Shown: one piece after another, positions 22,663 through 39,218 of the stretch | Numbering within the stretch: position 1 is the first letter of the stretch | How the letters are laid out: every line of letters begins with the position of its first letter | Origin: Emticicia sp. C21 | GTDB lineage: Bacteria > Bacteroidota > Bacteroidia > Cytophagales > Spirosomataceae | DNA: 64,000 nt | Direction: 5' to 3' | Assembly (NCBI RefSeq): GCF_003418935.1 | Contig: NZ_QVMT01000014.1 | Coordinates: 27,143-91,142 of the forward strand | The notes under the pieces: generated by a model | The model's input: only the letters and a program-made list of their open reading frames with translations | Told to the model about the DNA's origin: nothing | Database searches by the model: none | Program-made: the position numbers and the translations under genes

Positions 22663-23961
22663 ATGGGCAAGCATATATCAAAACTTGAACGCCAGAAAAA
22701 TTTACAAGAAAAGCAGGCGCTCGAACAACAAATCAAAATAGCGCTTGAAAAAGCAGCTAAAATCAACGAGAGTTTTGTGGCAATTATCAATGAAGCTCTT
22801 GACCCAAGTCGAACAGACAATTATTGGAGTAATGCAAGATTTCGTTTTTTTATGGAATTTCTGGGTTATAACCAGAAGAGAAACAAGAAAGAAGTTTTTA
22901 AAAAATGGATTGAAAATTTAGTTTTTCTGACCGAAAAACTGGAGAGCAAAAATCCAAAGTGGTTTAAAGATACCTATTTTTTAGGTGCATTAATTCAGAT
23001 TTCCAAATACAGAAGTTTATGGATTCGTCCACTGGAGGAATGGAAACCAAAAACCAAAAGCGAGCACGAAAGATTTAAGGAATTAGTGGCTTTTTTATTT
23101 GCAGAATATCCTTTTCCAGCTTTTTTGAATTATATATTTTTTTATCAGGAAGATTTTTTCTTTATCCGTGATTTTATCTTTCTGGCACAAGGTGGTAGTA
23201 TCAAACATATGAATTCAAGCATTCCTCTAAGCCAAAAGATGAAAGTTGAATTTATGAGAAGCCCTGAAGGGTTTAGAGTATTTGAGGCTTTCAGACATGC
23301 ACAGGTATTGAGTTTGGGAGGAGATGAATTATTAGCTCATCGAATTGCCTACTCGTGGTTAGGTCGAAAAGAAAAGAGGGATGAACCCTTTTGGGAAAAA
23401 TTCATTCAAATCCTAATTGCAGGTGGAATGTTTAATTATGATAAAATTGGTGAATTAATAGACTATGTTCGCCATGAAATCAATGAAAATAAAGCCTATA
23501 CGCTAAAGGGCAGAACTTTAAACTCGCTTATCCGTCAGAGTGAGTTGTGGCATGAAGGCCTGACTTTCACCAAGGAACAAAGGATGGAAAAATTCGCAGT
23601 ATGGAAACCTCTATTTTCTGAATCTTTTGAGGTGATAGAGGGAGTTGGAGAAAAAGCCAATCAGTACAAAATGGTTGAGCTATTATCTAATAAAGAGTTG
23701 ATGGACGAAGGTAATAAAATGCATCATTGCGTTGCTACTTACAGCTCTTATTGCTCAAAAGGAAGAACCAGAATTGTATCATTACGAAAATACCAGTGTG
23801 GATTTGAAATGGAAAGACAGGCCACTATAGAAGTAAATCTGGCAAGTGGGAGAGTGGTGCAGGCAAAATATCGCTACAATAAGCCAATTAGCGAAAAAGC
23901 ACAGAGTTTATTAACCCAATGGGTTGATGCTCAAGGATTTAGAATAGATAAGTATTTATAA
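22663..23961 (+). CDS. PcfJ-like domain protein
   Basis: 432 aa. The C-terminal region (LMDEGNKMHHCVATYSSYCSKGRTRIVSLR) resembles the conserved EG..M.HCV..Y core of the PcfJ-like family, as I recall it. Assigned from memory of the motif only. Confidence 0.45.
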   Translation: MGKHISKLERQKNLQEKQALEQQIKIALEKAAKINESFVAIINEALDPSRTDNYWSNARFRFFMEFLGYNQKRNKKEVFKKWIENLVFLTEKLESKNPKWFKDTYFLGALIQISKYRSLWIRPLEEWKPKTKSEHERFKELVAFLFAEYPFPAFLNYIFFYQEDFFFIRDFIFLAQGGSIKHMNSSIPLSQKMKVEFMRSPEGFRVFEAFRHAQVLSLGGDELLAHRIAYSWLGRKEKRDEPFWEKFIQILIAGGMFNYDKIGELIDYVRHEINENKAYTLKGRTLNSLIRQSELWHEGLTFTKEQRMEKFAVWKPLFSESFEVIEGVGEKANQYKMVELLSNKELMDEGNKMHHCVATYSSYCSKGRTRIVSLRKYQCGFEMERQATIEVNLASGRVVQAKYRYNKPISEKAQSLLTQWVDAQGFRIDKYL

Positions 23962-23979: not shown

Positions 23980-24996
23980 ATGAGAAAATTAGCGAGTATT
24001 CAAAGAATTATCGCACTGGAGCCAATTGAGGGTGCCGATAATATCTTGAAAGCTAAAGTTCTGGGTTGGGAGCTTGTGACTAAAAAAGATGAATTTGCTG
24101 TAGGAGATTTGTGTATCTATTGCGAGGTCGACAGTTTGCTCCCGGATAAGCCAGAATTTGAGTTTTTGAAGTCAAAAAGTTTTCGTATCAAAACTATCAG
24201 GCTTCGTGGGCAAATCTCACAAGGAATTTGTTTCCCTTTGAGTTTCCTACCAGAAAATTTTGAAATCGAAGAGGGAGCAGATTGTACAGACGTATTGGGT
24301 ATTATCAAATATGAACCACAAATCCCTGCGAATCTGGTTGGTATAATGAAAGGAGGTTTTCCTTCATTTATTCCTAAAACTGATGAAACCAGGGTACAGA
24401 TTTTACAAAATGTATTGGCAAAATATAAGGGTGAAGCCTGCTATATTGCCGAAAAACTGGATGGTAGCTCAGCAACTTATTATATCAGAGATGGTGTATT
24501 CGGGGTATGTTCAAGGAATCTTGAAATTGAAGAGGACAACGAAAATACCTACTGGAAAGTGGCCAAAGTATTGAATATTGAGGAAAAGCTGAGGTCTTTG
24601 AATGGTAATTATGCTTTGCAGGGCGAGCTGGTAGGGGAGGGTGTTCAGTACAATAAGATGAAAATGAAGGGAAATACTGTATTCTTTTTCAACCTTTTTA
24701 AGATTGATACTTTTGAGTACGTTTCTTATGCCGATTTTATGCAACTGATGAAAGCACTGGAATTGCCAACTGTACCAGTATTGAATGATAACTTTATCTT
24801 GCCGAACAGCATTACCGACTTGGTGGAGATGTCAAAGATTAAGTCAACCATTCAACCGGCAATGTGGGCTGAGGGTATCGTCATCAGGCTTCTGAATGAG
24901 AAACTGGATAAAACTCTTTTGAGAGATTTGGGCGGACACGGACGGATTTCATTTAAGGTAATTAATCCGGAATTTTTGTTGAAATTTAACGAATAA
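23980..24996 (+). CDS. ATP-dependent RNA ligase, DRB0094/DraRnl-like (Rnl5-type)
   Basis: 338 aa. The N-terminal segment (KLASIQRIIALEPIEGADNILKAKVLGWELVTKK.EFAVGDL) matches the DraRnl N-terminal OB-like module. A KxDG adenylation motif follows (AEKLDGSS). Confidence 0.65.
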   Translation: MRKLASIQRIIALEPIEGADNILKAKVLGWELVTKKDEFAVGDLCIYCEVDSLLPDKPEFEFLKSKSFRIKTIRLRGQISQGICFPLSFLPENFEIEEGADCTDVLGIIKYEPQIPANLVGIMKGGFPSFIPKTDETRVQILQNVLAKYKGEACYIAEKLDGSSATYYIRDGVFGVCSRNLEIEEDNENTYWKVAKVLNIEEKLRSLNGNYALQGELVGEGVQYNKMKMKGNTVFFFNLFKIDTFEYVSYADFMQLMKALELPTVPVLNDNFILPNSITDLVEMSKIKSTIQPAMWAEGIVIRLLNEKLDKTLLRDLGGHGRISFKVINPEFLLKFNE

Positions 24997-25015: not shown

Positions 25016-25684
25016 ATGAACTATCAGATTATCAGGGACGAAAAGCTTTTTCTCAACTTTATTGACTGGTTGCCGGAGCTTAAAAGAAATGAGACCTATT
25101 ATGTATCATTATTGGCTCGCAGCAAGTATCATCAGGCAGTAGGAAGCGATAAAGCTCAGGTAAAGCGATTCACAGCTACCAAAGATTTTCTCTTTGATAA
25201 GGTGAAACAACTGGAATGTGAATTGGGTACGTATAAATATAAGGGTGTAGGTATTCCGCAAGAGGCTTTGGCACTATATATCAGCCTGAATCCACGTGAT
25301 ATGGAGAAGGCCTGCAAGAGCGCTTTAATACGATTTGCTGAACTGATTACCAAAGAATATAACGGGTATAACCCACATCAGGAAGTATTATCAGAGATAC
25401 AGAAGTCGTGTACCAGGAAGGTATATTTTGACCTTGATTTCGATAAAGTAGATATTACAGAAACTTTAACAGAGATTAAGAACTATATCAACGAAGATTG
25501 TCTGACAGTATTGAGAACCCGGGGTGGCTTTCATTTATTGGTTGAATTATCCAGAATTGAAAAGCAATACACCAAAACCTGGCATCAATCGCTAGCTAAA
25601 ATAGAAGGTTGTGATGTGAAAGGAGATAATCTGATACCTTTGCCAGGATGCACACAAGGTGATTTTACACCACATTTTATGTAG
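25016..25684 (+). CDS. hypothetical protein (RNA-repair island)
   Basis: 222 aa with no P-loop or 2H motifs. Immediately follows the RNA ligase on the same strand. Confidence 0.45.
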   Translation: MNYQIIRDEKLFLNFIDWLPELKRNETYYVSLLARSKYHQAVGSDKAQVKRFTATKDFLFDKVKQLECELGTYKYKGVGIPQEALALYISLNPRDMEKACKSALIRFAELITKEYNGYNPHQEVLSEIQKSCTRKVYFDLDFDKVDITETLTEIKNYINEDCLTVLRTRGGFHLLVELSRIEKQYTKTWHQSLAKIEGCDVKGDNLIPLPGCTQGDFTPHFM

Positions 25685-25689: not shown

Positions 25690-26335
25690 CTATTAAATCA
25701 ACACAATACGCATGGAGAATTGCAGGAGTTGCTTGATGCTCCTGCTCCATGCAAACAACAAAAAGATAGCCTGAATGGACGAGGAGCTTGTCTTGAAAGC
25801 AAGTAATATTGAAAGGTGTTATAGGTTCGATTCCTATTGCCTCCGCAAAAATTAATAAGTAATACCGAGAGGTTTTTGGGCGGTCGCCGCGCGATTCGAT
25901 TCCTATTGCCTCTGCAAAATTAAATGAGCATGTACTCCAATCGGAAGAGAGAGCTGTCTCAGAAGCAGTTTAGTATTGGTTCGAATCCAATCATGCTTAC
26001 TAAATTCTAGCTTTTATAGCTGAATTTGTAAAAAAATAGGGAAAATAGTCCGTAAGTGGAAGCGGGGCGGTCTGTAAAACCGTTGCATTGTGCCTTGCAT
26101 GCGGCCGCCGCGCGGTTCGATTCATGCTTTTCCCACTATGGAGTTGATGAATCAGGGTAATTGCAATATTGCCGCAATTACCCTAGCTGCGACAGATTAT
26201 GCAGTTTGATTCATAATTTTTCAGTAAAAATAATAGAGAGTAAATCCTGCTGGGCAGGGCACTGCCTGCTACGCAGTTGGTTCATACATGAATGAAGTTC
26301 GAGTCTTCTGCTCTCTGCTGAGTGATGATTGTATT
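25690..26335 (+). ncRNA. cluster of degenerate tRNA-like / Y-RNA-like fragments (T-arm-containing remnants and stable hairpins)
   Basis: T-arm motifs: ATAGG-TTCGATT-CCTAT (25818-25834), a degenerate copy (~25893), ATTGG-TTCGAAT-CCAAT (~25975), GTTCGATTC (~26115) and GAAG-TTCGAGT-CTTC (~26296). A 14-bp interrupted hairpin lies at 25711-25753. A Tyr-like unit has a GGGAAAA/TTTTCCC acceptor. None of these folds as a full canonical tRNA. Confidence 0.4.
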
Positions 26336-26337
26336 AT

Positions 26338-26410
26338 GGAAAAATAGCCGAGTTGGTCAAGGCGTTAGTCTGAAACACTAAAGATGTAAGTTCGAATCTT
26401 ACTTTTTCCA
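26338..26410 (+). tRNA. tRNA-Phe-like (anticodon GAA), atypical all-A/T acceptor stem, CCA encoded
   Basis: Folds as GGAAAAA-TA-GCC(G)...D-loop GG...anticodon stem TTAGT/ACTAA, loop CTGAAAC, T-arm GTAAG-TTCGAAT-CTTAC, acceptor 3' TTTTTCC, then A and CCA. The D-stem has only 3 bp. Confidence 0.5.
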
Positions 26411-26505
26411 CCAAAAATTATGAGAAAGTATATAAAATGCTCTGGTTTGAAACGCAAACAACATAAACAGAGCACCATTTAATAAATGTTTTGCTGACTA
26501 AAAAA

Positions 26506-26576
26506 TACTGGATCGTTTAGAGGAAAGATATAACGATACGAACGTTAAGACCAAGGTTCGACTCCTTGTCCGGTAA
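26506..26576 (+). ncRNA. tRNA-like element (Arg-type ACG anticodon arm, irregular D-arm)
   Basis: Acceptor TACTGGA/TCCGGTA; perfect anticodon arm TAACG-ATACGAA-CGTTA; perfect T-arm CAAGG-TTCGACT-CCTTG. The D region does not form a canonical stem. Confidence 0.4.
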
Positions 26577-26622
26577 CAAATAAGTAAAAAGCTATTATAT
26601 TGATTGTTTAAATAAACGTAAA

Positions 26623-27129
26623 ATGATACTTGCAGTAGATGTTTTTTATAAACAGAGTAGCGCTAAAATAGTAGGATTGATTTTTAATGATTGGAATGAT
26701 GCCAAATATGCCCAGAAAATTGAAAAGTTTAGAAACGATATAGCCGATTATGAGCCAGGGGCATTCTATAAACGAGAGTTGCCATGTATTATGGATATTC
26801 TCACAGACCTGGATCTGACACAACTGAAGTATATAATAGTAGATGGCTATGTATTTCTGGATGATGATGGGAAACCTGGACTAGGGGCGCATTTATATGA
26901 AGCACTACCAATAAAGGTTCCGATAATAGGTGTAGCTAAGACTTCTTTTGCCAACAATAAAAAGTACGTGGCGGAGGTATTTAGGGGCATAAGCCAGAAA
27001 CCATTGTTTATTACTGCCATAGGAGAGGATTTAACAAATGCTGCCGCTATGGTACACAGCATGTCTGGAGAATATCGCTTTCCGACTATGCTAAAAGAGC
27101 TGGACGACTTCACAAAAGTGATACGGTAG
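26623..27129 (+). CDS. nfi: endonuclease V-like protein (divergent)
   Basis: 168 aa. Conserved EndoV blocks are present with E. coli-like spacing: A-VDV (catalytic Asp), YEPGAFYKRE (the FRE block), IVDGYV (the VDG block), and PIIGVAKTSF (the GVAK block). The His-Pro-Arg block after the VDG motif is replaced. Confidence 0.55.
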   Translation: MILAVDVFYKQSSAKIVGLIFNDWNDAKYAQKIEKFRNDIADYEPGAFYKRELPCIMDILTDLDLTQLKYIIVDGYVFLDDDGKPGLGAHLYEALPIKVPIIGVAKTSFANNKKYVAEVFRGISQKPLFITAIGEDLTNAAAMVHSMSGEYRFPTMLKELDDFTKVIR

Positions 27130-27302
27130 TAACAGAATAAAAGTTTTTGGAAAATATTTTCAGTTGCAAATATTTGACTATCAGATGTTTGTCGTAATGC
27201 TAAGAGAATATTTTTTACTACGCAAAAAGACTGCGTAGGTGGTGTGAACTTTTGTAGCATCAAATTGATAATTAAGTTCTTTAATAATGATAAAAAGAAG
27301 TG

Positions 27303-27440
27303 CCGTAGAACAGAGTTACTTCGCTTTAGGAGCCGTGTGTCATTGGTTCGAATCCAATCTGCCTGACTAAATAAGTCATTCAGGCAGTAGCTCAGTCCGG
27401 TAGAGCAACGTAAAAGGCTCTTTTCGCTCTTTGCCTTCTT
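27303..27440 (+). ncRNA. circularly permuted tRNA-like module 1 (candidate YrlA-type Y RNA)
   Basis: Order along the strand: T-arm ATTGG-TTCGAAT-CCAAT (27342-27358); closed acceptor hairpin CTGCCTGA-13nt-TCAGGCAG (27359-27387); TA; D-arm GCTC-AGTCCGGTA-GAGC (27390-27406). The flanking helix GGAGCC (27329-34) / GGCTCT (27416-21) covaries with module 2. Confidence 0.45.
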
Positions 27441-27445
27441 TAAAA

Positions 27446-27521
27446 TCTGGGTGTTATGCAAATGGTTATACAACGGTGTTTTGGAGACATCGGTTCGCTG
27501 GTTCGAATCCAGCTACCCAGA
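27446..27521 (+). ncRNA. tRNA-like element (Pro-type TGG anticodon loop, irregular core)
   Basis: 7-bp acceptor TCTGGGT/ACCCAGA; D-arm TATG-CAAATGGT-TATA; anticodon arm GGTGT-TTTGGAG-ACATC; T-arm GCTGG-TTCGAAT-CCAGC. There are 4 extra nt between the D and anticodon stems. Confidence 0.4.
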
Positions 27522-27693
27522 CTATCAAGTGTCGTAGAGAAGTCATACCTCGTTCCAAGGGTTGAGATATAGGTAGTTACCGCAAGATACAAGTCCTATC
27601 TGCAAAGAATTGCAGTGGTCGATATTAAGACGCAACCGTGCTCATGAAAGATGAGCCCATAGCAGACTGCTCGCTTGTTACCTTGATTATTTC

Positions 27694-27783
27694 GCTCGGT
27701 TGGGCAAATTGGTTAAGCCGCCACTCTTTCACAGTGGAGATTACGGGTTCAACCGCGGTGGCGGACCACCCCCGTACCGAGTA
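27694..27783 (+). pseudogene. tRNA-Glu-like (TTC) element with a 16-nt hairpin insertion in the T-loop
   Basis: Acceptor GCTCGGT/ACCGAGT; 3-bp D-stem GGC/GCC; perfect anticodon arm CCACT-CTTTCAC-AGTGG; T-stem ACGGG/CCCGT enclosing a 23-nt loop that contains hairpin CCGC-GGTG-GCGG. Confidence 0.4.
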
Positions 27784-27814
27784 CATGAAGTTTTAAAATT
27801 TAACAGTTAATGCA

Positions 27815-28129
27815 ATGAAAAATGATGTTATCAGATATTTCTTGGTAAACTCTGAAGAGACCGGAAGACATATTGTCACTTCTTTCCGCACAGGCAGAAA
27901 ATATTATATTGAGCCTATCGGTAATGGAAGAATGGCAGATTGGGGAAGTTATAATCCAGGTACGGGTAATATAGAAAATAAGAAAGGAGCAGGAAAGCAC
28001 ACAGGCTCTGTTATGGCCGAAGATTCTGTAATTACACCAGAAAACGGATTCGTGAATATTCATTTGATTGAAAGCGGAAGTCCTTATTCAATCATTGATG
28101 AAATGGATGCAAAACATCCGAGTATATAA
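27815..28129 (+). CDS. hypothetical protein (within tRNA-like array)
   Basis: 104-aa ORF between tRNA-like modules with no recognisable motif. Whether it is really coding is uncertain. Confidence 0.3.
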   Translation: MKNDVIRYFLVNSEETGRHIVTSFRTGRKYYIEPIGNGRMADWGSYNPGTGNIENKKGAGKHTGSVMAEDSVITPENGFVNIHLIESGSPYSIIDEMDAKHPSI

Positions 28130-28142
28130 ATTAAAAATAAGC

Positions 28143-28275
28143 AAGTGTCGTAGACAAGAGATACTTCGCATTGATAACGCAGAGGTCGCACGTTCGAGTC
28201 GTGCATAGATTTCGGTCTATTAGCTCAGGTGGTTAGAGCACTTAAAAGCCTCTTTTCGCTATTTACCTTGCTTAT
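28143..28275 (+). ncRNA. circularly permuted tRNA-like module 2 (candidate YrlA-type Y RNA)
   Basis: T-arm GCACG-TTCGAGT-CGTGC (28188-28204); acceptor hairpin ATAGAT-TTCG-GTCTAT (28205-28220); TA; D-arm GCTC-AGGTGGTTA-GAGC (28223-28239). Flanking helix AGAGGT (28181-86) / GCCTCT (28248-53). Confidence 0.45.
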
Positions 28276-28284
28276 TTTTAAAAT

Positions 28285-28357
28285 GTTGCGATTAGTGTAG
28301 TGGTTTACACGAGGGCTTGTGGAGCCGTTAAGATGAGTTCGAATCTCATATCGCAAC
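28285..28357 (+). tRNA. tRNA-His (anticodon GTG) with encoded G-1 and C73
   Basis: G-1 at 28285; acceptor TTGCGAT/ATCGCAA; D-arm GTGT-AGTGGTTT-ACAC; anticodon loop TTGTGGA; T-arm ATGAG-TTCGAAT-CTCAT; discriminator C. There is one G-G mismatch in the anticodon stem. Confidence 0.7.
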
Positions 28358-28549
28358 CAATCAAATGCCATTGAATGGCTTTGGTTAATTACCCGATTAG
28401 GCAAATGCTGTGACTAAGCTGTGACTAATGCCTAATCAGGGTACAATGAGGTGCCGTAAAAAAGTGATACTTCGCTTGGTGACCAGAAGAAATTCTGGAA
28501 GGTTCGAATCCTTAAACACACTTTTTGCTTTTTGCCCTCATTTTAAGAT

Positions 28550-28622
28550 TACCTCATAGCTCAGTCGGTAGAGCAGCACCCTGTTAAGGTGATGGCCGTT
28601 GGTTCAACCCCAATTGAGGTAG
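28550..28622 (+). tRNA. tRNA-Asn (anticodon GTT)
   Basis: Acceptor TACCTCA/TGAGGTA; TA-GCTC-AGTCGGTA-GAGC; anticodon loop CTGTTAA; T-arm GTTGG-TTCAACC-CCAAT; discriminator G. Confidence 0.8.
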
Positions 28623-28649
28623 CATTTTTAGTCAATGCTGTGATTATAC

Positions 28650-28722
28650 AATCGGATCGTCTAATTGGTAAAGACATCGGGATTTGGCCCCGAAGATTGA
28701 GGTTCAAGTCCTTATCTGATTA
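28650..28722 (+). tRNA. tRNA-Gln (anticodon TTG)
   Basis: Acceptor AATCGGA/TCTGATT; D-arm GTCT-AATTGGTAA-AGAC; anticodon arm TCGGG-ATTTGGC-CCCGA; T-arm TGAGG-TTCAAGT-CCTTA. Confidence 0.8.
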
Positions 28723-28739
28723 CTGAATAGTTTATTTAT

Positions 28740-28813
28740 TACTTTGTAACTCAGTTGGTTAGAGTACCATCCTTTTAAGATGGGAGTCGTCAGTTCGAGC
28801 CTGACCAGAGTAA
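28740..28813 (+). tRNA. tRNA-Lys (anticodon TTT)
   Basis: Acceptor TACTTTG/CAGAGTA; TA-ACTC-AGTTGGTTA-GAGT; anticodon arm CCATC-CTTTTAA-GATGG; T-arm GTCAG-TTCGAGC-CTGAC. Confidence 0.8.
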
Positions 28814-28886
28814 CATCAGGTGCCGTGGATAAGGGTTACTTCGTCTCTAAAACTCTGTTGACTCTTATCGCTTATTGCCCTGAAAT

Positions 28887-28958
28887 GGTCTGATAACTCA
28901 GTGGTAGAGTTGTTTTCTGATACGAAACAGGTCGAAGGTTCGAATCCTTCTCAGACTA
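28887..28958 (+). tRNA. tRNA-Ile (anticodon GAT)
   Basis: Acceptor GGTCTGA/TCAGACT; TA-ACTC-AGTGGTA-GAGT; anticodon arm GTTTT-CTGATAC-GAAAC; T-arm GAAGG-TTCGAAT-CCTTC. Confidence 0.8.
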
Positions 28959-28978
28959 CAATGATTATTTGTTTTTAC

Positions 28979-29051
28979 TACTCTGTAGCTCAGTTGGAAG
29001 AGCGTCATCCTTCTAAGATGAGGGTAATTGGTTCGAATCCAATCAGGGTAA
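28979..29051 (+). tRNA. tRNA-Arg (anticodon TCT)
   Basis: Acceptor TACTCTG/CAGGGTA; TA-GCTC-AGTTGGAA-GAGC; anticodon arm TCATC-CTTCTAA-GATGA; T-arm ATTGG-TTCGAAT-CCAAT. Confidence 0.8.
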
Positions 29052-29187
29052 CATCAAGTGCCGTAGAGAAGAGTTACTTCGTCCGCTAATAGGGGAGGAA
29101 TAGCGAAGTTGTAAAATCAGCAAGACTATCCAGTTCGATTCTGGCTTTGACATGCCCCGTCACTCTTTTCGATTTTTGCCTTGAATT

Positions 29188-29259
29188 GGTTTGATAGCTC
29201 AATGGTAGAGCGGTTCTCTCATAAGGAACAGGCCGATAGTTCGATTCTATCTCAGACTA
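29188..29259 (+). tRNA. tRNA-Met/fMet-type (anticodon CAT)
   Basis: Acceptor GGTTTGA/TCAGACT; TA-GCTC-AATGGTA-GAGC; anticodon arm GTTCT-CTCATAA-GGAAC; T-arm GATAG-TTCGATT-CTATC. Could alternatively be the lysidine-modified Ile2 type. Confidence 0.75.
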
Positions 29260-29333
29260 CAAGTTTGGTGCATCAAATACTTCCTCTCAGAACGGTTCTG
29301 AGATGGCGTTATTCAAACAAAATTTTTTCAACC

Positions 29334-30854
29334 ATGAAATTCAATATTTTGAATCGTGAGAAAAATACAGTTATCAATCACGCAGGAGCTAAAGCTTATA
29401 CACTTACTCCAGCTATGGAACTATACACCAGCGTGGTAACGAGTATCCTGTCAGATACTTTCTATGAAAAGGCTGATGATCGTCTGGCTCGTATTCAGGC
29501 GCTCATCCGTAAAAACGATGCCCAATTTGTAGCAAAACTGGCTGTATATGCCCGTGAAAAAATGTACCTGCGTTCAATCCCTTTGGTATTGCTGACAGAG
29601 CTGGCGCAAACCCATAAAGGTGATAATCTGGTAAGCCGTACGGTTGGCCGTGTGATTCAGCGTGCTGACGAAATTACCGAATTGCTGGCTTGCTACCAGA
29701 TGGCTAACCAGCGTAAAGAAACCAAAAAACTGAACCGTTTGTCAAAACAGATTCAGAAAGGTCTGGCTGAGGCTTTCAATAAATTTGATGAATACCAGTT
29801 CAGCAAATACAACCGTACAGGTACTGATGTAAAACTGCGTGATGCCTTGTTTCTGGTTCACCCAAAGGCAAAAAATGAAGCACAGCAAGTCATTTTTAAC
29901 AAAATTGCTAAAGATGAACTGGTTACAGCTCAAACCTGGGAAACTACTTTGTCAGCCGTGGGTCAGAATGATTTTGATTCAGAAACTCATAAACTGGAAG
30001 CAAAATCACAGGCATGGGAGCAACTGATTCTTAATGGAAAACTAGGATACATGGCTATGCTGCGTAACCTGCGTAACATTATTGAAGCGAACGTAAGCCA
30101 GGAGGCTATCGAAAAAGTATGTGCTACTTTGAGCAATGCTCGTGCAGTAGCTAATGCTAAACAATTTCCTTTCCGTTTCTTGTCAGCTTACCGAGGGGTA
30201 AAGCATCTGCAAAACGGACGGGTAAGCAATATTCTGACTGCTTTAGAAACGGCCGTTCAGCATTCGGCGAATAATATCCGTGGTTTCGATGCTCGTACGC
30301 GTGTAGTAATTGCTGCCGACGTATCAGGTTCAATGCAACGGGCAATTTCTCCAAAAAGTACTGTTCAGAACTTTGATATCGGTTTGATGTTGGCCATGTT
30401 GCTGCAAAACCGTTGCGAGGATGTAGTAACAGGTATGTTTGGAGATACGTGGAAAATCATTAGCGTGCCAAAAAACAATATTCTGGCAAACGTATTGGAG
30501 TTCCATCGTCGTGAGGGGGAGGTAGGTTATTCAACCAACGGACATCTGGTAATTCAGGATTTGATTAACCGAAGAAAAAAAGTTGATAAAATCATGATTT
30601 TTACCGACTGTCAACTTTGGAACAGTAATGGTGGAAGCCCGATTGCTCAGGCATGGGCCGAATACAAAAAAATAGCACCAAATGCTCGTTTGTATTTGTT
30701 TGACTTGGCTGGATACGGAAATACTCCAGTTAATACAGTTAACGAGGGTTCTGTATTTCTGATGGCCGGATGGTCAGATAAAATTTTTGACATTCTTACA
30801 GCTATTGAAGAAGGAAGCAATGCAATTGCTGAAATCAATAAAATTGAAATTTAG
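29334..30854 (+). CDS. rsr: Ro60-related protein (Rsr; TROVE domain + vWA/MIDAS)
   Basis: The vWA MIDAS motif DVSGSM and the Ro60-like blocks KQFPFRFLSAY, LRDALFLVHPKA and IMIFTDCQLWN align with metazoan Ro60 (RIHPFHILVAL / LLRLSHIKP / IFIVFTDCETN). The start was moved to the ATG at 29334 (MKFNILNREK) because the upstream part of track ORF 29181 overlaps tRNA-Met. Confidence 0.85.
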   Translation: MKFNILNREKNTVINHAGAKAYTLTPAMELYTSVVTSILSDTFYEKADDRLARIQALIRKNDAQFVAKLAVYAREKMYLRSIPLVLLTELAQTHKGDNLVSRTVGRVIQRADEITELLACYQMANQRKETKKLNRLSKQIQKGLAEAFNKFDEYQFSKYNRTGTDVKLRDALFLVHPKAKNEAQQVIFNKIAKDELVTAQTWETTLSAVGQNDFDSETHKLEAKSQAWEQLILNGKLGYMAMLRNLRNIIEANVSQEAIEKVCATLSNARAVANAKQFPFRFLSAYRGVKHLQNGRVSNILTALETAVQHSANNIRGFDARTRVVIAADVSGSMQRAISPKSTVQNFDIGLMLAMLLQNRCEDVVTGMFGDTWKIISVPKNNILANVLEFHRREGEVGYSTNGHLVIQDLINRRKKVDKIMIFTDCQLWNSNGGSPIAQAWAEYKKIAPNARLYLFDLAGYGNTPVNTVNEGSVFLMAGWSDKIFDILTAIEEGSNAIAEINKIEI

Positions 30855-30907
30855 TTTAGGGTTAGAATCACTTTCCGGGTCTGGTTTCCGGACCTGGAAA
30901 TTTAAAT

Positions 30908-30979
30908 GGAACATTGGTGAAATGGTTATCATCCTACCCTGTCACGGTAGAATCATGGGTTCGATTCCCATATGTTCCG
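30908..30979 (+). tRNA. tRNA-Asp (anticodon GTC)
   Basis: Acceptor GGAACAT/ATGTTCC; TG-GTGA-AATGGTTA-TCAT; anticodon arm CTACC-CTGTCAC-GGTAG; T-arm ATGGG-TTCGATT-CCCAT; discriminator G. Confidence 0.8.
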
Positions 30980-31112
30980 CGATAGAAACGTAGTTGAACC
31001 TGATGAGGGTTTCATTAAGGCCCCATAGTATTGGAGCAATTGCTTTCAATATGCTGTCAATGAGGGTTCTGTTAATTTATGTAGGTTCGAATCCTGCCAA
31101 GCTAATAAATAT

Positions 31113-31155
31113 GGGCTTGTCGTGTAATGGTTAACACAATGGACTTCCACTCCAT
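31113..31155 (+). pseudogene. 5' fragment of a tRNA-Gly-like (TCC) gene lacking a T-arm
   Basis: GGGCTTG-TC-GTGT-AATGGTTA-ACAC-A-ATGGA-CTTCCAC-TCCAT: acceptor 5' strand, perfect D-arm and anticodon arm. No TTCGA T-arm follows. Confidence 0.4.
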
Positions 31156-31453
31156 AATTTAGAAAACAAGTAAATCAGTCTGAAACTATTCGGGTGTTTT
31201 TACCTTCGCAAAAACACAGTTCAGTACAGACTTGCAAAGAGGAGGATACCGATAGATAGAGGTGATTGCTTCAATGCTGGCGACTACATATATTATAGGG
31301 TGGCTGTCTCGTGGTTACGAGAGACAAACAATTTAGAATTATAGACTAGCCCAAGGCTATTGAACCGATTATCGAAGTCCGTCTTAATCTGATTTCCGTT
31401 TCAATGAATCGGATAGTGTAAGACTGATTTTTAACAAAGTAATTATTAAAATC

Positions 31454-32548
31454 ATGAAAAATATACAAGTAAATGCCAATCAGGTAGCATTGGTTTTGAA
31501 AAATAAGGCTTTCAAGCGATTGCTTGGTGAGGGTTCTTATTGGTTTTGGGGAAATGAAGAAGTTTTTATATATGAGAAAGGAAATGCCTTTGCTGCTCCC
31601 GTTGAACTAAACGTGCTATTGCAACATCCTGAAATCACAGAGGCCTTGGATGTCATAGAGGTAAAAGATAATGAAATGATGGTTCAGTTTGAAGACAATC
31701 GCTTCAAAACTGTCTTTGGTCCGGGTAAATACGCTTTCTGGCGCGGTATTAAAAACTATACTTATACGGCTATTGATTTAAACAAAATCGAGATTACTGA
31801 AGATTTTAGCCCACAGCTAATCAGCACTAAATTATTGTCGTATGTGAGAAGTTATACTGTAGAGTCTTACGAAAAAGGAGTTTTGATTGTTGATGGTAAA
31901 TTTGTACGTGTGTTAGACGGAGGTACTTATTACTGGTGGAAAAATACCATCAGCATTCAGGTAGCTAAAGCGGATATGCGTCAATTGCAAATGGAGATTT
32001 CAGGACAGGAGATTCTGACGAAAGATAAAGCCAGCTTGCGTTTAAATGCCTTTGTGCAATATCGTATCACCGATATTGTGAAAGCGATGTATGAAAACAA
32101 AGACTACGAAAAACAAGTATATGTTGTATTGCAATTGGCTTTAAGAGAGTATATTGGTGGATTAACTTTGGACGAATTGCTGGATAAAAAAGATAGTATT
32201 GTGGATTTTGTATTGAAAAATACTGCCGACAAATTGGTAGGTTTGGGTATTGAAATCAAAGGCTGTGGTATCCGTGATATTATTTTACCCGGAGACATGA
32301 AAGATATCATGAATCAGGTATTGATGGCTGAGAAAAAAGCACAGGCCAATATCATTATGCCTAGGGAAGAAACCGCTTCTATGCGTAGCTTGTTGAACAC
32401 TGCCAAATTGATGGAAGAAAATGAAACCTTGTGGAAATTGAAAGAGATGGAATATGTAGAGAAAATCGCGGATAAAATCAATACTATTTCAGTTTCAGGC
32501 AATGGACAGATTCTCGACCAATTGAAGCAAATTTTTGTAAAAAATTAA
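31454..32548 (+). CDS. SPFH/band-7 domain protein with ~170-aa N-terminal extension
   Basis: The C-terminal half (QEILTKDKASLRLNAFVQYRITD...KGCGIRDIILPGDMKDIMNQVLMAEKKAQANII) is a typical SPFH/band-7 core. Confidence 0.7.
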   Translation: MKNIQVNANQVALVLKNKAFKRLLGEGSYWFWGNEEVFIYEKGNAFAAPVELNVLLQHPEITEALDVIEVKDNEMMVQFEDNRFKTVFGPGKYAFWRGIKNYTYTAIDLNKIEITEDFSPQLISTKLLSYVRSYTVESYEKGVLIVDGKFVRVLDGGTYYWWKNTISIQVAKADMRQLQMEISGQEILTKDKASLRLNAFVQYRITDIVKAMYENKDYEKQVYVVLQLALREYIGGLTLDELLDKKDSIVDFVLKNTADKLVGLGIEIKGCGIRDIILPGDMKDIMNQVLMAEKKAQANIIMPREETASMRSLLNTAKLMEENETLWKLKEMEYVEKIADKINTISVSGNGQILDQLKQIFVKN

Positions 32549-32555
32549 AAATAGG

Positions 32556-32583
32556 GTAGGGGTTGAAAATTTTCAACCCCTAC
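32556..32583 (+). promoter_or_regulatory. perfect 28-nt palindrome between the SPFH gene and rtcB
   Basis: GTAGGGGTTGAAAA|TTTTCAACCCCTAC. Forms a 12-bp stem with a 4-nt loop as RNA. There is no downstream T-tract. Confidence 0.4.
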
Positions 32584-32597: not shown

Positions 32598-34124
32598 ATG
32601 GAAACAACGATTTCATTAGAAGAAATATTAGCATTAGGGAATATACCAGAAAACCTGCAAGGTAGTTTCCTGAGAATAGCTAACGGATTGCATCAAAAGG
32701 CTGAATATCCAAAAGAAAAGGTATTAAGAATGTTTGCTGAAATGTTGGCTAGCCCAAAGAAATTTGCCTATTCAAAAAATAAGGTAACTAACCTGGCAAA
32801 AGAGATTTTTGACCTAGAAAAGAAAGGGATGAAAGTCGAGCTTTCAGAAGAAGGCAAGACTTATTTACCTGCTGAGTCGCCTGTGTATGAGATGGAGGAA
32901 AAAGAAAAGCAAAAAACAGTTGCTTTTGATTTAAGAACATCTCCATTGCCATATCAGATTTACGGCGCTGAATATATCGAAGAGGGCGCATTGAAGCAAA
33001 TGGAAACTGCTTTGAGTTTGCCTGTGGCTGTAGCAGGTGCTTTAATGCCTGATGCCCATCAAGGCTATGGGCTACCTATCGGTGGTGTATTAGCTACGAC
33101 CAATAATACGGTTATTCCGTTTGCGGTCGAAGTAGACATTGCCTGCCGGATGTGTTTGTCAATTTTTGATATTCCAGGTGATTTTTTCAAACGTCAGCCG
33201 CATTTGCTGAAACGTGCTTTAGTAGAGAATACCAAGTTTGGTATGGGTGGAGAAACGGCTCACAAGTTTGATGAAAGTGTCATGGATAAAGCAGAATGGA
33301 CAGCCACAAAAATCATTCGTGATTTGAAAGATAAAGCTTATCGACAATTAGGTACCTCAGGTACTGGAAACCACTTTGTAGAGTGGGGTATTGTAGAGGT
33401 ATTTTCAGCTGATGATTTGCTGGCAGTACCTAAAGGCGAATATCTGGCGCTCCTATCTCATTCGGGTTCAAGAGGTTTTGGTGGGGCAGTAGCTAATCAT
33501 TATTCAAAAGTAGCTATGAAGAAAACCAAATTGCCAAAAGAGGCAGCTCATCTGGCATGGTTGGATATGAATACCGAAGAAGGGCAGGAGTATTGGATTG
33601 CTATGAATCTGGCAGGAGATTATGCTTCGGCCAATCACCACGAAATTCATAAGAAGATTGCTAAAATGTTGGGTGAACAACCTATAAAAATGGTTGAAAA
33701 TCACCACAATTTTGCCTGGAAAGAAAATTTGGCTGATGGTACAGAAGTAATTGTACATAGAAAAGGAGCAACACCTGCCAATCGCAATGACTTAGGGATT
33801 ATTCCTGGCTCTATGACTGACCCAGGCTTTATCGTTCGTGGTAAAGGTATAAGCGAATCATTAAATTCAGCTTCACATGGCGCAGGTCGTTTGATGTCGA
33901 GAACTAAAGCACTTAATTCTATAACTAATAGTGCCTTGAAAAAAGTATTAGAAGAAAAAGGAGTACAACTGATAGGTGGAGATTTAGATGAAGCACCAAT
34001 GGTTTATAAGAATATTGAAACGGTAATTGCTTCGCAAACCGATCTCGTAGAGATTTTGGCTAAGTTTAGCCCAAAGATTGTAAGGATGGCAGATGCCAAT
34101 CGCAAAGAAGGACGAGAGGATTGA
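32598..34124 (+). CDS. rtcB: RNA-splicing ligase RtcB family, with ~100-aa N-terminal extension
   Basis: RtcB hallmarks are present: MPDAHQGYGLPIGGV, DIACRMC, ENHHNFAWKE...VHRKGATPA and SHGAGR. Confidence 0.85.
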   Translation: METTISLEEILALGNIPENLQGSFLRIANGLHQKAEYPKEKVLRMFAEMLASPKKFAYSKNKVTNLAKEIFDLEKKGMKVELSEEGKTYLPAESPVYEMEEKEKQKTVAFDLRTSPLPYQIYGAEYIEEGALKQMETALSLPVAVAGALMPDAHQGYGLPIGGVLATTNNTVIPFAVEVDIACRMCLSIFDIPGDFFKRQPHLLKRALVENTKFGMGGETAHKFDESVMDKAEWTATKIIRDLKDKAYRQLGTSGTGNHFVEWGIVEVFSADDLLAVPKGEYLALLSHSGSRGFGGAVANHYSKVAMKKTKLPKEAAHLAWLDMNTEEGQEYWIAMNLAGDYASANHHEIHKKIAKMLGEQPIKMVENHHNFAWKENLADGTEVIVHRKGATPANRNDLGIIPGSMTDPGFIVRGKGISESLNSASHGAGRLMSRTKALNSITNSALKKVLEEKGVQLIGGDLDEAPMVYKNIETVIASQTDLVEILAKFSPKIVRMADANRKEGRED

Positions 34125-39075: not shown

Positions 39076-39149
39076 GGCTGCGTAGCTCAACTGAATAGAG
39101 CGTCTCACTACGGATGAGAAGGTTAGGGGTTTGAATCCCTTCGCGGTCA
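39076..39149 (+). tRNA. tRNA-Arg (anticodon ACG)
   Basis: Acceptor GGCTGCG/CGCGGTC; TA-GCTC-AACTGAATA-GAGC; anticodon arm TCTCA-CTACGGA-TGAGA; T-arm AGGGG-TTTGAAT-CCCTT; discriminator A. Confidence 0.85.
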
Positions 39150-39218
39150 CAAAAAGTTCAAAAACCCTTCAAATAGCGCTATTTGAAGGGTTTTTTGTTT
39201 TATGGTGATACCGTTTTT
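39134..39218 (+). repeat. left copy of an ~85-bp direct repeat (tRNA-Arg 3' end + terminator)
   Basis: About 94% identical to 43142-43226. The left copy is part of the intact tRNA. Confidence 0.7.
39163..39196 (+). terminator. rho-independent terminator after tRNA-Arg
   Basis: Perfect 13-bp palindromic stem CCCTTCAAATAGC/GCTATTTGAAGGG followed by T6. Confidence 0.75.

Follow-up and report, generated by a model that had tools for sequence, protein, structure and literature searches.

Two described systems come closest to the locus considered here, which adds a variant to both. L-arrays are horizontally acquired, supernumerary tRNA arrays that are induced by translational stress and co-regulated with rtcB (PMC8421152), while the rsr-yrlBA-rtcBA operon is induced by tRNA halves (PMC7790460). 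Mycobacterial YrlA is an RNase P substrate (PMC4201824). Further afield, TROVE genes are present in 20 of 29 archaeal tRNA clusters (PMC6333295), phages can carry Ro60 with Y-like RNAs (PMC12135203, PMC7824862), and phage-encoded tRNAs allow infection to succeed despite tRNA nucleases (PMC10264068, PMC11464382, PMC11555353).

The locus is chromosomal, in Emticicia (Bacteroidota), and was analysed within a 64-kb window, by which we mean the whole stretch of DNA studied. An RNA-repair cluster at about 22.66-34.12 kb encodes Rsr (Ro60), RtcB, a DraRnl-type RNA ligase, an EndoV-like nuclease, an SPFH protein and a PcfJ-like protein, and surrounds an array of 15 same-strand tRNA genes (25926-30980, + strand) whose long "spacers" are filled by six Y-RNA-like genes. 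Two RNA ligases, RtcB and the ATP-dependent DraRnl-type enzyme, are encoded within one cluster. Gene identities and gene order were established from sequence with ARAGORN, Rfam, Pfam, NCBIfam and PHROG. The protein genes and an accompanying structured region are as follows (L numbers denote related loci).

22663..23961, + strand: PcfJ-like protein (432 aa), with which the cluster begins
23980..24996, + strand: ATP-dependent RNA ligase, DRB0094/DraRnl family (TIGR02306, 179.8 bits, cut-off 151; also matches Pfam PF21189, PF09414 and PHROG RNA ligase)
25016..25684, + strand: protein of unknown family (222 aa), with orthologues confined to L002 and L003; zero matches in Pfam, NCBIfam, PADLOC and PDB
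26623..27129, + strand: short Endonuclease V-like protein (168 aa; Pfam PF04493, 35.3 bits, cut-off 23.4), among related loci in L002 and L003 only
27815..28129, + strand: small protein of unknown family (104 aa), without match in family searches including Pfam, NCBIfam and PHROG; homologues (41-98% identity) adjoin rsr in L001, L002, L020, L023, L026, L028 and L073
29334..30854, + strand: rsr, Ro60 orthologue with TROVE and vWA domains (Pfam PF05731, PF25045); 95%, 92% and 86% identical to Emticicia proteins
30981..31453, + strand: conserved structured non-coding region upstream of the SPFH gene (fold z-score -2.3)
31454..32548, + strand: SPFH/Band-7 protein (Pfam PF01145, E 8e-30)
32598..34124, + strand: RtcB RNA ligase (Pfam PF01139, E 1.2e-81)

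The structured region has many invariant columns over four Emticicia species and holds a permuted tRNA-like core at about 31085-31172 (Rfam tRNA 25.9 bits, partial). The placement of tRNA-Asp and a tRNA-like element immediately ahead of a Band-7 gene, with RtcB next in order, matches a known system by description only. RtcB lies within 10 kb of rsr, on the rsr strand, in 37 of 80 related loci. Like the Salmonella operon (PMC7790460, PMC4201824), the Emticicia cluster combines Rsr and RtcB with neighbouring Y RNAs on the same strand, some of which resemble tRNAs. It differs in having six Y RNAs rather than two, in adding 15 tRNAs and the ATP-dependent ligase, EndoV-like, SPFH and PcfJ-like genes, and in that neither RtcA nor RtcR was found among the cluster's ORFs with Pfam. 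Promoter and terminator scans returned the same counts as shuffles, with Bacteroidota promoters outside the scan's coverage.

The sequence-only reading had reported eight tRNAs, and all eight were recovered by ARAGORN on the + strand in their places, with Rfam scores of 49.6-67 bits; the gathering score of RF00005 is 29 bits, and the two housekeeping tRNAs in the window score 55.6 and 58.

28285..28358 (28286-28358 without G-1), + strand: tRNA-His(GTG) with encoded G-1 and C73 (ARAGORN; Rfam 49.6 bits)
28550-28623, + strand: tRNA-Asn(GTT) (ARAGORN; Rfam 62.6 bits)
28650-28723, + strand: tRNA-Gln(TTG) (ARAGORN; Rfam 57.7 bits)
28740-28814, + strand: tRNA-Lys(TTT) (ARAGORN; Rfam 61 bits; covariation)
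28887-28959, + strand: tRNA-Ile(GAT) (ARAGORN; Rfam 64.6 bits)
28979-29052, + strand: tRNA-Arg(TCT) (ARAGORN; Rfam 64.4 bits)
29188-29260, + strand: tRNA with anticodon CAT, probably of the tRNA-Ile2 type (ARAGORN; Rfam 67 bits)
30908-30980, + strand: tRNA-Asp(GTC) with G73 (ARAGORN; Rfam 62.1 bits)

The 5' ends given for these genes (TACCTCA, TACTTTG, TACTCTG, AATCGGA, and TTGCGAT with G-1 before it and C73 after) were correct, as was the description of their acceptor stems as AT-rich: two or three of the seven pairs are G:C, against five or six in the housekeeping tRNAs, and overall GC content is 43-53% against 53-63%. The G-T wobbles said to occur in most of these stems are present in five of the eight and absent from His, Asn and Asp. 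U1 in tRNA-Asn and tRNA-Gln is normal for bacteria; what is unusual is the U1:A72 pair of Lys and both Arg tRNAs. The gene called Met(CAT) is real, but its isotype is probably otherwise: 79% identity to Ile(GAT), together with a 90% identical orthologue in Emticicia sp. BO119 (L001) whose anticodon is TAT, suggests an AUA-reading tRNA of the Ile2 type.

Eight was an underestimate, since ARAGORN also finds Leu(CAG), Phe, Arg(ACG), Pro and Glu, and at relaxed threshold Tyr(GTA) and Ser(GCT). The supernumerary tRNA set around rsr numbers at least 15. Spacers said to be 20-130 nt in fact run from 16 to 191 nt, and the long ones are occupied by the Y-RNA-like genes.

25766..25917, + strand: rearranged tRNA-Ser(TGA)-like pseudo-fragments (sequence reading; Rfam tRNA 23.6 bits, partial)
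25926..26000, + strand: tRNA-Leu(CAG), 75 nt, without long variable arm (ARAGORN; Rfam 53 bits)
26039..26134, + strand: tRNA-Tyr(GTA) with a 14-nt GC-rich insert at 26102-26115 (ARAGORN, relaxed threshold)
26235..26318, + strand: tRNA-Ser(GCT) (ARAGORN, relaxed threshold; 85-92% identity in L001 and L002)
26338..26413, + strand: tRNA-Phe(GAA) (ARAGORN; Rfam 75.6 bits), the only array tRNA with an encoded CCA
26506..26577, + strand: tRNA-Arg(ACG), array copy (ARAGORN; Rfam 47.4 bits)
27447..27522, + strand: tRNA-Pro(TGG) with C1:G72 and A73 (ARAGORN; Rfam 30.3 bits)
27694..27783, + strand: tRNA-Glu(TTC) with a 16-nt T-loop insert at 27753-27768 (poor score as called)
39076..39150, + strand: housekeeping tRNA-Arg(ACG), comparator outside the cluster (ARAGORN; Rfam 58 bits)

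Several of these are atypical. The tRNA-Tyr insert sits at the junction of T stem and T loop; with it removed the gene is detected at ARAGORN's default threshold, and the orthologues in L001, L002 and L005 have no insert. Removal of its insert likewise turns tRNA-Glu into a canonical 75-nt tRNA, and the L001 orthologue is insert-free. The second Ser(TGA)-like fragment bears a GC-rich T-arm insert (25880-25893), and its counterparts in L001 and L002 are full tRNA-Ser once the insert is removed. Across the locus, T arms carry GC-rich inserts of 14-22 nt. Leu(CAG), which is 91-96% identical to its orthologues in L001-L003, the insert-bearing Tyr and Glu, the weak Pro and the Ser fragments may be inactive.

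The Y-RNA-like genes and the RNA-repair setting of Rsr, RtcB and Rnl had both been overlooked in the sequence-only reading. The six genes are:

27296..27439, + strand: Y1, with YrlA-type tRNA-like domain (5' and 3' motifs; Rfam YrlA 38.8 bits, E 8.7e-7, model positions 23-87); ends 7 nt before tRNA-Pro
27525..27686, + strand: Y2, with other internal modules (5' motif; fold closes the same basal stem); starts 3 nt past N73 of tRNA-Pro, ends 7 nt before tRNA-Glu
28141..28271, + strand: Y3, with YrlA-type tRNA-like domain (motifs; Rfam YrlA 39.5 bits, E 5.3e-7); ends 13 nt before G-1 of tRNA-His
28447..28540, + strand: Y4, with T-arm-like hairpin (5' and 3' motifs, fold); ends 9 nt before tRNA-Asn
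28816..28883, + strand: Y5, minimal Y-RNA-like gene of 68 nt (5' and 3' motifs, fold); starts 2 nt past N73 of tRNA-Lys, ends 3 nt before tRNA-Ile
29054..29184, + strand: Y6, Y-RNA-like gene (5' and 3' motifs, fold); starts 2 nt past N73 of tRNA-Arg(TCT), ends 3 nt before the CAT tRNA

All six share a 24-nt 5' motif (six matches against none expected) and a covarying bulged stem. Pairing of the proposed stem reaches 78% over 203 unique units drawn from related loci, where shuffled sequences give 60% (61% at most), and it covaries through many pair types, with A-T 80 times and G-C 73 times at one position and C-G 90 and T-A 65 at another. Over the 80 loci, 334 copies of the motif lie within 5 kb of rsr on its own strand (77 loci) and three more at greater distance; the opposite strand has none. 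Y1 and Y3 resemble YrlA (RF02553; PMC4201824, bioRxiv 10.1101/312249) in their order of T arm, closed "acceptor" hairpin and D arm and in lying on the rsr strand at most 2.1 kb upstream of rsr. Unlike YrlA proper, they reach 39 bits where the gathering score is 69, and leave the model's Ro-binding part unmatched, the Bacteroidota stem having its own conserved 5' strand, GUGYCGURRA-N7-UACYUCG; Y2, Y4, Y5 and Y6 have no YrlA domain.

The junctions are tight, Y units in the window ending 3-13 nt before a tRNA and starting 2-3 nt after the preceding N73, and across loci a tRNA starts 0-19 nt downstream of 47 of 100 Y units. Together with the tRNA mimicry of Y1 and Y3, the structural oddity of several array members and the proposal by Hughes et al. 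that the YrlA tRNA-like domain may inhibit anticodon nucleases (PMC7790460), this invites an account in which the tRNAs are not mainly translational, acting instead as punctuation for Y-end processing, as nuclease decoys or competitive inhibitors, or as Rsr/RtcB cofactors or substrates, with decoy or cofactor roles extending to the tRNA-like Y domains. We consider it unlikely. Numerous rsr loci, including some from Flavobacterium and Chryseobacterium, carry 3-8 Y units without any tRNA, so tRNAs are dispensable for making Y RNAs, and the conserved isotype-specific discriminator bases and anticodon loops would be needed by neither a decoy nor a punctuation mark.

That conservation also argues that the array tRNAs still function, as had been claimed. 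Sequence comparison shows compensatory changes preserving the cloverleaf, at 17 of 20 pairs in tRNA-Lys, and discriminator bases that follow isotype (His C73 in 26 of 27, Asp G73 in 24/24, Cys U73 in 9/9, Lys A73 in 36 of 37). Their non-housekeeping character was likewise upheld. The array and housekeeping copies of Arg(ACG), 12.5 kb apart, share 60% identity, and in this sole host/array pair compared loop positions 32 and 37 differ. Between congeners array tRNAs are 75-99% identical, against 97-100% for housekeeping tRNA-Arg(ACG) (L001, L002), and array content differs among Emticicia species at the syntenic locus. That these are merely the organism's housekeeping tRNAs in a cluster, as the lack of a second copy in the window for seven of eight anticodons might suggest, is barely credible given the canonical second Arg(ACG) and this far faster divergence; moreover, the E. 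soli locus lacks the His, Asn, Ile, Arg(TCT) and CAT tRNAs and many rsr loci have no tRNA, which implies housekeeping copies elsewhere in the genus. Redundancy is shown directly for Arg(ACG) only and would extend to the other array tRNAs.

Same-strand tRNA arrays adjoin rsr in 47 of the 80 Bacteroidota loci and on 8 of 14 viral contigs. The repertoire of the 47 arrays leans towards split-box tRNAs (Lys 36, Phe 34, Asn 29, Gln 28, His 27, Arg-ACG 24, Asp 24, Glu 23) and away from Thr (8), Val (6), Gly (5) and Ala (4). A device for tRNA dosage or codon supply, providing more high-demand tRNAs for fast growth or for the cluster's own genes, would fit the presence of Lys, Ile, Glu, Asn and Phe, common amino acids in this AT-rich genome, and codon compensation is the classical account of phage tRNAs (discussed in PMC10264068). 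We find it quite improbable, as 25% of local codons are for Ala, Gly, Val and Thr, whose tRNAs are absent here and rare in the 47 arrays, arrays often hold His (1.9% of codons), Trp (1.2%) and Gln (3.6%), and the rapid divergence and low GC content set these genes apart from strongly expressed housekeeping tRNAs. A replacement of tRNAs depleted by anticodon nucleases is plausible in view of this skewed repertoire and of the two ligases in the cluster. The set resembles phage anti-nuclease sets (T5 and others) in consisting of divergent extra copies of typical nuclease targets with a proposed replacement role, and differs in lying on a cell's chromosome with no cognate nuclease known; no anticodon nuclease, toxin or defence gene was found in the 64-kb window, and the cluster proteins have no PADLOC match.

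The comparison of the array to phage or plasmid types holds in part: relatives of the rsr/Y/tRNA module are present on phage-like contigs, but here the cluster is chromosomal and syntenic across four Emticicia species, and is therefore not a recent phage or plasmid insertion. A decaying mobile-element relic without present function would account for those contigs, for the pseudo-fragments and insert-bearing genes, and for the variation in content between species. It is very improbable in view of the synteny, of the compensatory changes and identity nucleotides kept across families, and of a cluster in which Pfam and PHROG reveal no integrase or other phage gene among the ORFs. Archaeal TROVE-tRNA clusters (PMC6333295) and phage Ro60 (PMC12135203, PMC7824862) share the linkage of Ro60/TROVE to tRNA clusters and the viral occurrence, in another domain of life or other hosts; interleaved Y RNAs and RtcB linkage are not described in those reports. 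With L-arrays the locus shares many close, same-orientation tRNA genes redundant with housekeeping genes, a patchy phylogenetic distribution and RNA-processing neighbours including rtcB. It differs in its 15 genes, under the 20-gene "array unit" definition, its interleaved Y RNAs and arrangement around rsr, its chromosomal, syntenic position, and a strongly biased anticodon set where that of L-arrays is near-complete.

The earlier interpretation is, as a whole, partly supported. Our preferred explanation, a battery of non-coding RNAs within an RNA-repair cluster with a proposed role in stress and repair, seems to us reasonably probable. In this model, the RNAs would be transcribed as long precursors, from which RNase P cleavage at tRNA 5' ends and tRNA 3' processing would free the tRNAs and the neighbouring Y RNAs, the latter being loaded onto Rsr. 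When translation is stressed or tRNA-cleaving toxins strike, the divergent tRNAs, mostly of split codon boxes, would serve as replacements, while broken tRNAs could be resealed by RtcB and the ATP-dependent ligase and damaged RNA handled or degraded by Rsr-Y RNPs. The tRNA/Y arrangement, which recurs across Bacteroidota, probably provides spares and repair for tRNAs that have been damaged.

ARAGORN found 15 tRNA genes in the window, 13 of which form a single plus-strand series at 25926-30980. An earlier sequence-only reading had described an array of eight (His, Asn, Gln, Lys, Ile, Arg(TCT), Met(CAT) and Asp); all eight are present where they were claimed to be, as judged by both ARAGORN and Rfam RF00005, but the array as described was incomplete. 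Upstream of the eight lie Leu(CAG), Phe, Arg(ACG), Pro and Glu, called at the ARAGORN default, and Tyr(GTA) and Ser(GCT) were detected at a relaxed threshold. The two tRNAs outside the series are the following.

3973, isolated tRNA-Leu(TAG), ARAGORN
39076, isolated tRNA-Arg(ACG), ARAGORN

The eight score 49.6-67 bits against RF00005 over model positions 1-71, exceeding its gathering score of 29 bits and falling in the same range as the isolated tRNAs (55.6 and 58 bits), while the weaker members of the array reach 30.3 (Pro), 28.6 (Tyr) and 24 bits (Glu) against the same 29-bit score. The unusual features attributed to the eight largely hold. Their 5' ends read TACCTCA (Asn), TACTTTG (Lys), TACTCTG (Arg-TCT) and AATCGGA (Gln) as claimed, and tRNA-His has the TTGCGAT start, the encoded G-1 and C73. 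The acceptor stems are indeed AT-rich, with two to three G:C pairs as opposed to five to six in the isolated tRNAs, and a G-T pair, ascribed to most of them, is present in five of the eight. The spacers, put at 20-130 nt, actually measure 16-191 nt, and the long ones are occupied. CCA is encoded in Phe only and in none of the eight; tRNA-Pro keeps C1:G72 and A73.

Several members of the series have individual peculiarities. The gene named tRNA-Leu(CAG) by its anticodon (25926-26000) is a class-I tRNA of 75 nt whose variable loop measures 4 nt, where a bacterial tRNA-Leu is expected to have a long arm; it is 91-96% identical to its counterparts in three sister species and 72% identical to the array Arg(TCT). 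At 25766-25917 there are two copies of a tRNA-Ser-like T arm and acceptor 3' strand, the first joined to Ser(TGA)-like D, anticodon and variable arms with no 5' acceptor strand. These pieces look like rearranged pseudo-tRNA fragments, and in Emticicia sp. BO119 (locus L001) and E. agri (L002) the corresponding site is occupied by a complete Ser gene that carries an insert. Finally, the 'Met(CAT)' gene at 29188-29260 has a 90%-identical orthologue in BO119 (L001 9855-9927) with the anticodon TAT. Ile genes with a TAT anticodon are rare in bacteria. This CAT/TAT switch, together with the frequency of TAT Ile genes in related arrays, suggests that the window gene reads AUA.

The array lies within a run of genes (22663-34124) that are all on the plus strand and encode the following proteins.

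plus strand, PcfJ-like protein
plus strand, ATP-dependent RNA ligase of the DRB0094/DraRnl family (TIGR02306, above cut-off)
plus strand, 222-aa protein of no family
plus strand, EndoV-like nuclease, directly 3' of tRNA-Arg(ACG)
plus strand, 104-aa protein of no family
29334-30854, plus strand, Rsr, the Ro60 orthologue, with TROVE and Ro60-vWA domains
plus strand, SPFH/Band-7 protein
plus strand, RtcB, starting 1.7 kb 3' of rsr

PADLOC gave no defence-family match for any of these proteins, and a PDB sequence search returned nothing usable for the PcfJ-like, 222-aa and 104-aa proteins. The short EndoV-like gene, which together with the preceding tRNA-Arg(ACG) spans 26506-27129, deserves comment. 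In bacterial tRNA-Arg(ACG), A34 is deaminated to inosine, and EndoV cuts adjacent to inosine; the juxtaposition of the two genes may be meaningful. Between tRNA-Asp and the SPFH gene (30981-31453) there is a 470-nt non-coding region that is strongly conserved in four Emticicia species, and which at about 31085-31172 contains a circularly permuted tRNA-like core consisting of a T arm, a closed acceptor hairpin, a D arm and an anticodon-like arm; in BO119 and E. soli (L001 and L003) the region holds an additional YrlA-like module. Compared by description, this core may be the 'Band-7-associated tRNA' of Burroughs and Aravind, which, according to that description (bioRxiv 10.1101/312249), adjoins RtcB. 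Outside the cluster the window holds ordinary chromosomal genes (RelA/SpoT, trigger factor, iPGM, ClpP, nuoI/J/K, peptidases). It includes a 458-aa NuoI homologue (36676-38052) with long C-terminal Lys/Pro/Glu-rich tandem repeats (KPVFKP..., EEKIEEE...) and, 8 kb outside the cluster beside an FtsX-type permease, an IS1-like transposase ORF (41979-42683, minus strand). A sigma-70 promoter and terminator scan gave counts equal to those in shuffles, the model being one that does not cover Bacteroidota promoters.

The long spacers between the tRNAs are central to our interpretation of the locus. Six spacers open with a common 24-nt motif, GTGYCGTRRA-N7-TACYTCG, which is matched six times in the 64 kb and never in 100 shuffles, and five of the six units share the 3' terminal TTTTYGMTNTTTRCCYT. 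Every unit folds with its two ends paired, a 7-bp basal helix with one bulged U leading through an asymmetric internal loop to a second helix of about 9 bp and then to a variable apical module. In a local search Y1 and Y3 match YrlA (RF02553) with 38.8 and 39.5 bits (E about 1e-6), below the gathering score of 69, and align with model positions 23-87 only, which comprise the T arm, closed acceptor hairpin and D arm. At the gathering score the YrlA model finds nothing in six other Bacteroidota rsr loci, so the curated family does not capture these RNAs. The 5' strand of the units presumably resembles that of metazoan Y RNAs, a likeness on which we do not rely since the metazoan Rfam Y_RNA family gave no match to the window's units at E <= 1. 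Given their fold, the likeness of Y1 and Y3 to YrlA and the presence of rsr downstream, the units are most readily interpreted as Y RNAs whose Ro-binding stem is specific to the lineage.

A survey of the 80 closest rsr loci, allowing up to two substitutions in the 5' motif, places this family firmly beside rsr. There are 334 copies within 5 kb of rsr and on its strand, in 77 of the 80 loci (median 4 per locus, maximum 8); the three loci lacking the motif are short or truncated contigs. Farther from rsr we found three copies in 699 kb, and on the opposite strand none. Furthermore, in 203 unique units whose 3' strand was anchored by its own conserved motif and not by pairing, the 18 proposed stem pairs are 78% paired, compared with 60% (maximum 61%) when 3' strands are shuffled among units, and several stem positions show balanced covariation. 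The end-pairing helix is thus backed by covariation and by linkage to rsr, and Rsr would be expected to bind these units. In two related loci, Rfam tRNA matches covering model positions 7-64 only (L022 11936-11994 and 8354-8416; L013 12058-12118) lie within the Y-unit region or just 5' of the Band-7 gene; they seem to be tRNA bodies with the acceptor stem swapped for another stem, and would be a second kind of tRNA mimicry among these Y RNAs.

The units in the window are joined to the tRNAs almost without intervening sequence.

Y1, 3' end 7 nt upstream of Pro
Y2, 5' end 3 nt downstream of Pro N73, 3' end 7 nt upstream of Glu
Y3, 3' end 13 nt upstream of His G-1
Y4, 3' end 9 nt upstream of Asn
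Y5, 5' end 2 nt downstream of Lys N73, 3' end 3 nt upstream of Ile
Y6, 5' end 2 nt downstream of Arg-TCT N73, 3' end 3 nt upstream of the CAT tRNA

With this geometry the ends of the Y RNAs would be set by RNase P and by tRNA 3'-end processing. Cleavage by RNase P is already documented for a mycobacterial YrlA (PMC4201824). Between tRNA-His and Y4 (28390-28443) there is also an imperfect 14-bp inverted repeat, TACCCGATTAGGCA / TGCCTAATCAGGGTA, enclosing a direct repeat of GCTGTGACTAA.

The window Rsr has counterparts in Emticicia sp. BO119 (95% identity), E. agri (92%) and E. soli (86%), all Spirosomataceae (Bacteroidota). In these three the gene order HTH, ClpP, PcfJ, cluster, Nudix, FAD protein, nuoI/J is maintained, with flanking proteins 88-99% identical across the species and nuoI 74-75%. 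The cluster itself is more variable: BO119 has no ligase, 222-aa protein or EndoV, E. soli has no 104-aa protein, the identity of PcfJ falls to 56-60% in two of these sister species, and ARAGORN counts 12, 16 and 5 tRNAs per locus of about 21.5 kb (BO119, E. agri and E. soli, respectively). Beyond Emticicia, 3-20 same-strand tRNAs flank rsr in 47 of the 80 closest loci, within the flanks retrieved, and such arrays occur in Spirosomataceae, Chitinophagaceae, Ferruginibacter, Chryseolinea and some Chryseobacterium. RtcB is on the rsr strand in 37 of the 80. Eight of 14 IMG/VR contigs carry tRNAs, up to 27, and two viral contigs whose Rsr is 56% identical encode DNA polymerase, topoisomerase, CCA-adding enzyme and phosphoesterase. 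A recently mobile island was considered as the origin of the Emticicia cluster and rejected, because the locus is syntenic in four species and no integrase is present; nor does the window contain a phage structural gene.

The non-housekeeping character proposed for the array tRNAs is borne out by comparison. Array Arg(ACG) and its isolated counterpart at 39076 share 60% identity, and the isolated gene is itself 97-100% identical between Emticicia species, as opposed to 75-99% for the array orthologues; between the species, Lys is 77-80%, Ile 82-86% and Asp 86-92% identical. The E. soli locus has no His, Asn, Ile, Arg-TCT or CAT tRNA and many rsr loci carry no tRNAs at all, so other genes for these isoacceptors must exist in these genomes. 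Redundancy is established for Arg(ACG) and, judging by the variable content between congeners, is likely for the remaining array tRNAs. Their U1:A72 pair and non-G starts mark the array tRNAs as a lineage of their own: U1:A72 is found in 26 of 35 rsr-linked tRNA-Lys, T1 starts in 32/39 Lys, 23/39 Arg and 21/33 Ile, and 210 of 437 array tRNAs lack G at position 1.

Among 35 tRNA-Lys, compensatory double changes are seen at 17 of the 20 helix pairs, and neither the anticodon loop CUUUUAA nor the T loop varies. Discriminators are isotype-true across 429 array tRNAs, namely His C73 in 26/27, Asp G73 in 24/24, Lys A73 in 36/37, Asn G73 in 24/28 and Cys U73 in 9/9. The suggestion that the genes are functional, made from the G-1 and C73 of tRNA-His, is strengthened by these discriminators and compensated helices, and we take the whole as evidence that the array tRNAs are still tRNAs under selection.

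The set of anticodons is strongly biased. Counted as the number of arrays carrying each tRNA, among the 47 rsr-linked arrays, Lys-TTT (36), Phe (34), Asn (29), Gln-TTG (28), His (27), Arg-ACG (24), Asp (24) and Glu (23) are followed by Tyr (19), the CAT anticodon (19), Ile-TAT (18), Pro (17) and Trp (16), and then by Thr (8), Val (6), Gly (5) and Ala (4). Amino-acid demand does not explain this set, since Ala, Gly, Val and Thr together make up 25% of the codons in the window's proteins and His and Trp only 1.9% and 1.2%. The preference is for tRNAs that serve split codon boxes and have heavily modified wobble positions, the typical targets of anticodon nucleases: PrrC cuts Lys tRNA, colicin E5 those for Tyr, His, Asn and Asp, colicin D Arg tRNA, and gamma-toxin those for Glu, Lys and Gln. 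The repertoire fits, short of proof, the idea in the sequence-only reading that such arrays replace tRNAs depleted by nucleases.

Some array tRNAs carry a precise, GC-rich hairpin insert of 14-22 nt in the T arm. Those located in the window and in related loci are as follows.

26102-26115, 14-nt insert in Tyr, at the T-stem/T-loop junction
27753-27768, 16-nt insert in Glu, inside the T loop
BO119 (L001), about 9745-9760
E. agri (L002), about 7778-7793, 8700-8715, 9333-9348 and 9557-9572
Ferruginibacter array (L045), 372-393, 476-497 and 671-692, one identical 22-nt hairpin in three adjacent tRNAs

Insert-free orthologues exist for Tyr (L001, L002 and the related locus L005) and for Glu (L001); conversely, Lys has a 16-nt insert in L001 and L002 and none in the window. 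The same insert family occurs in Pro, Ile and one Y-unit T arm of E. agri, the Glu type recurs in a second Asp 3' of rsr in three species, and Ser is among the carriers in sister species. In-silico removal yields a canonical tRNA at default threshold in 17 of 19 cases, nine of these 17 being undetectable with the insert present, and in the insert-bearing Glu a D-stem change between species is compensated. The inserts of full-length array tRNAs could be small introns cut out of the RNA by some endonuclease, with the exons rejoined by the cluster's RtcB or DraRnl. If true, this would be a first case of protein-dependent tRNA splicing in Bacteria and would account for the association of ligases with these arrays.

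An exact 21-mer of insert and T loop was found in 51 metagenome contigs, with no exact match in the viral contigs. There the 16-nt insert ACGGTCGGCCGCTGCC sits between nt 52 and 53 and mostly marks partial 3' copies of a tRNA or tmRNA, each located one terminator-like hairpin 3' of an intact, insert-free gene and having a terminator-like hairpin of its own (L139 3918-4310, with three tandem 110-nt units; L137 7053-6560, minus strand; also L105, L115, L130 and L098). Because most of these copies are partial tRNAs, removing the insert at the 53|54 or the 52|53 boundary gave the same outcome. Integrative-island att sites were considered as the source of the partial copies and rejected, only one of ten downstream ORFs being an integrase. 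The prevalence of partial copies weakens the intron reading. Likewise, by inspection the inserts are simple hairpins abutting the T stem or loop with no 3-nt bulges, unlike archaeal-type protein-spliced introns; no bulge-helix-bulge was seen at the junctions and no EndA-like splicing endonuclease in the cluster. A regex scan for T-arm inserts gave similar numbers on the two strands (27 and 22), its matches beyond Emticicia and L045 being mostly noise, and a literature search for T-arm inserts or bacterial non-canonical tRNA introns returned nothing relevant. We regard splicing as very improbable; the evidence points to a T-arm-specific insertion at the DNA level or to a hairpin that is functional in itself. 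If functional, the inserts would be a new feature of bacterial tRNA genes.

The component parts of this locus are already known, each separately. L-arrays are supernumerary, horizontally acquired, stress-induced and co-regulated with rtcB (PMC8421152); here, arrays flank rsr at 47/80 loci and also occur on viral contigs, a spread that may reflect horizontal transfer, yet within Emticicia the locus is syntenic. A tRNA array unit as defined in PMC4758250 has at least 20 tRNA genes and at least two per kb, and this array has 15 in 5.06 kb, or about three per kb including rsr. Rsr (TROVE and vWA) and a same-strand RtcB are shared with the rsr-Y RNA-rtcBA operon, which in addition has RtcA and RtcR; neither the RtcA cyclase nor the RtcR activator has a counterpart domain in the eight cluster ORFs or the scanned neighbours. 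The signal that turns on rsr-yrlBA-rtcBA is tRNA halves (PMC7790460). Of 29 archaeal tRNA clusters, 20 contain a TROVE gene (PMC6333295); Ro60 accompanied by Y-like RNAs is found in phages (PMC4201824, PMC12135203), and phage tRNAs counter tRNA nucleases (PMC10264068, PMC11464382, PMC11555353). What appears new in the searched literature is the joining of these parts in one locus, and likewise the biased repertoire with its U1:A72 lineage; the Bacteroidota Y family, with its multiple copies directly abutting tRNAs, also appears new.

The observation that began this work was right and its interpretation partly so, the real object being larger than eight tRNAs. The identity of its parts rests on the tool results, and from these we infer a mechanism in which tRNAs and Y RNAs would be co-processed, the array would supply spare tRNAs under tRNA damage, the ligases would repair damaged tRNAs and Rsr with its Y RNAs would provide quality control under the same conditions.

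Bacterial Ro60/Y RNA systems and 'cryptic' tRNA arrays have so far been studied apart; here they are physically joined. Precursors and processing sites appear to be common to genuine tRNAs and several Y RNAs, two RNA ligases lie alongside, and the arrangement recurs in dozens of Bacteroidota and on phage-like contigs. The Y-RNA family involved has over 300 members and escapes the curated YrlA model at the gathering score. The locus therefore provides a tractable setting in which to study whether spare tRNAs and Y RNAs work jointly under attack on tRNAs or damage to them, and its biased anticodon set makes a clear prediction of which tRNAs would be under attack in these bacteria.
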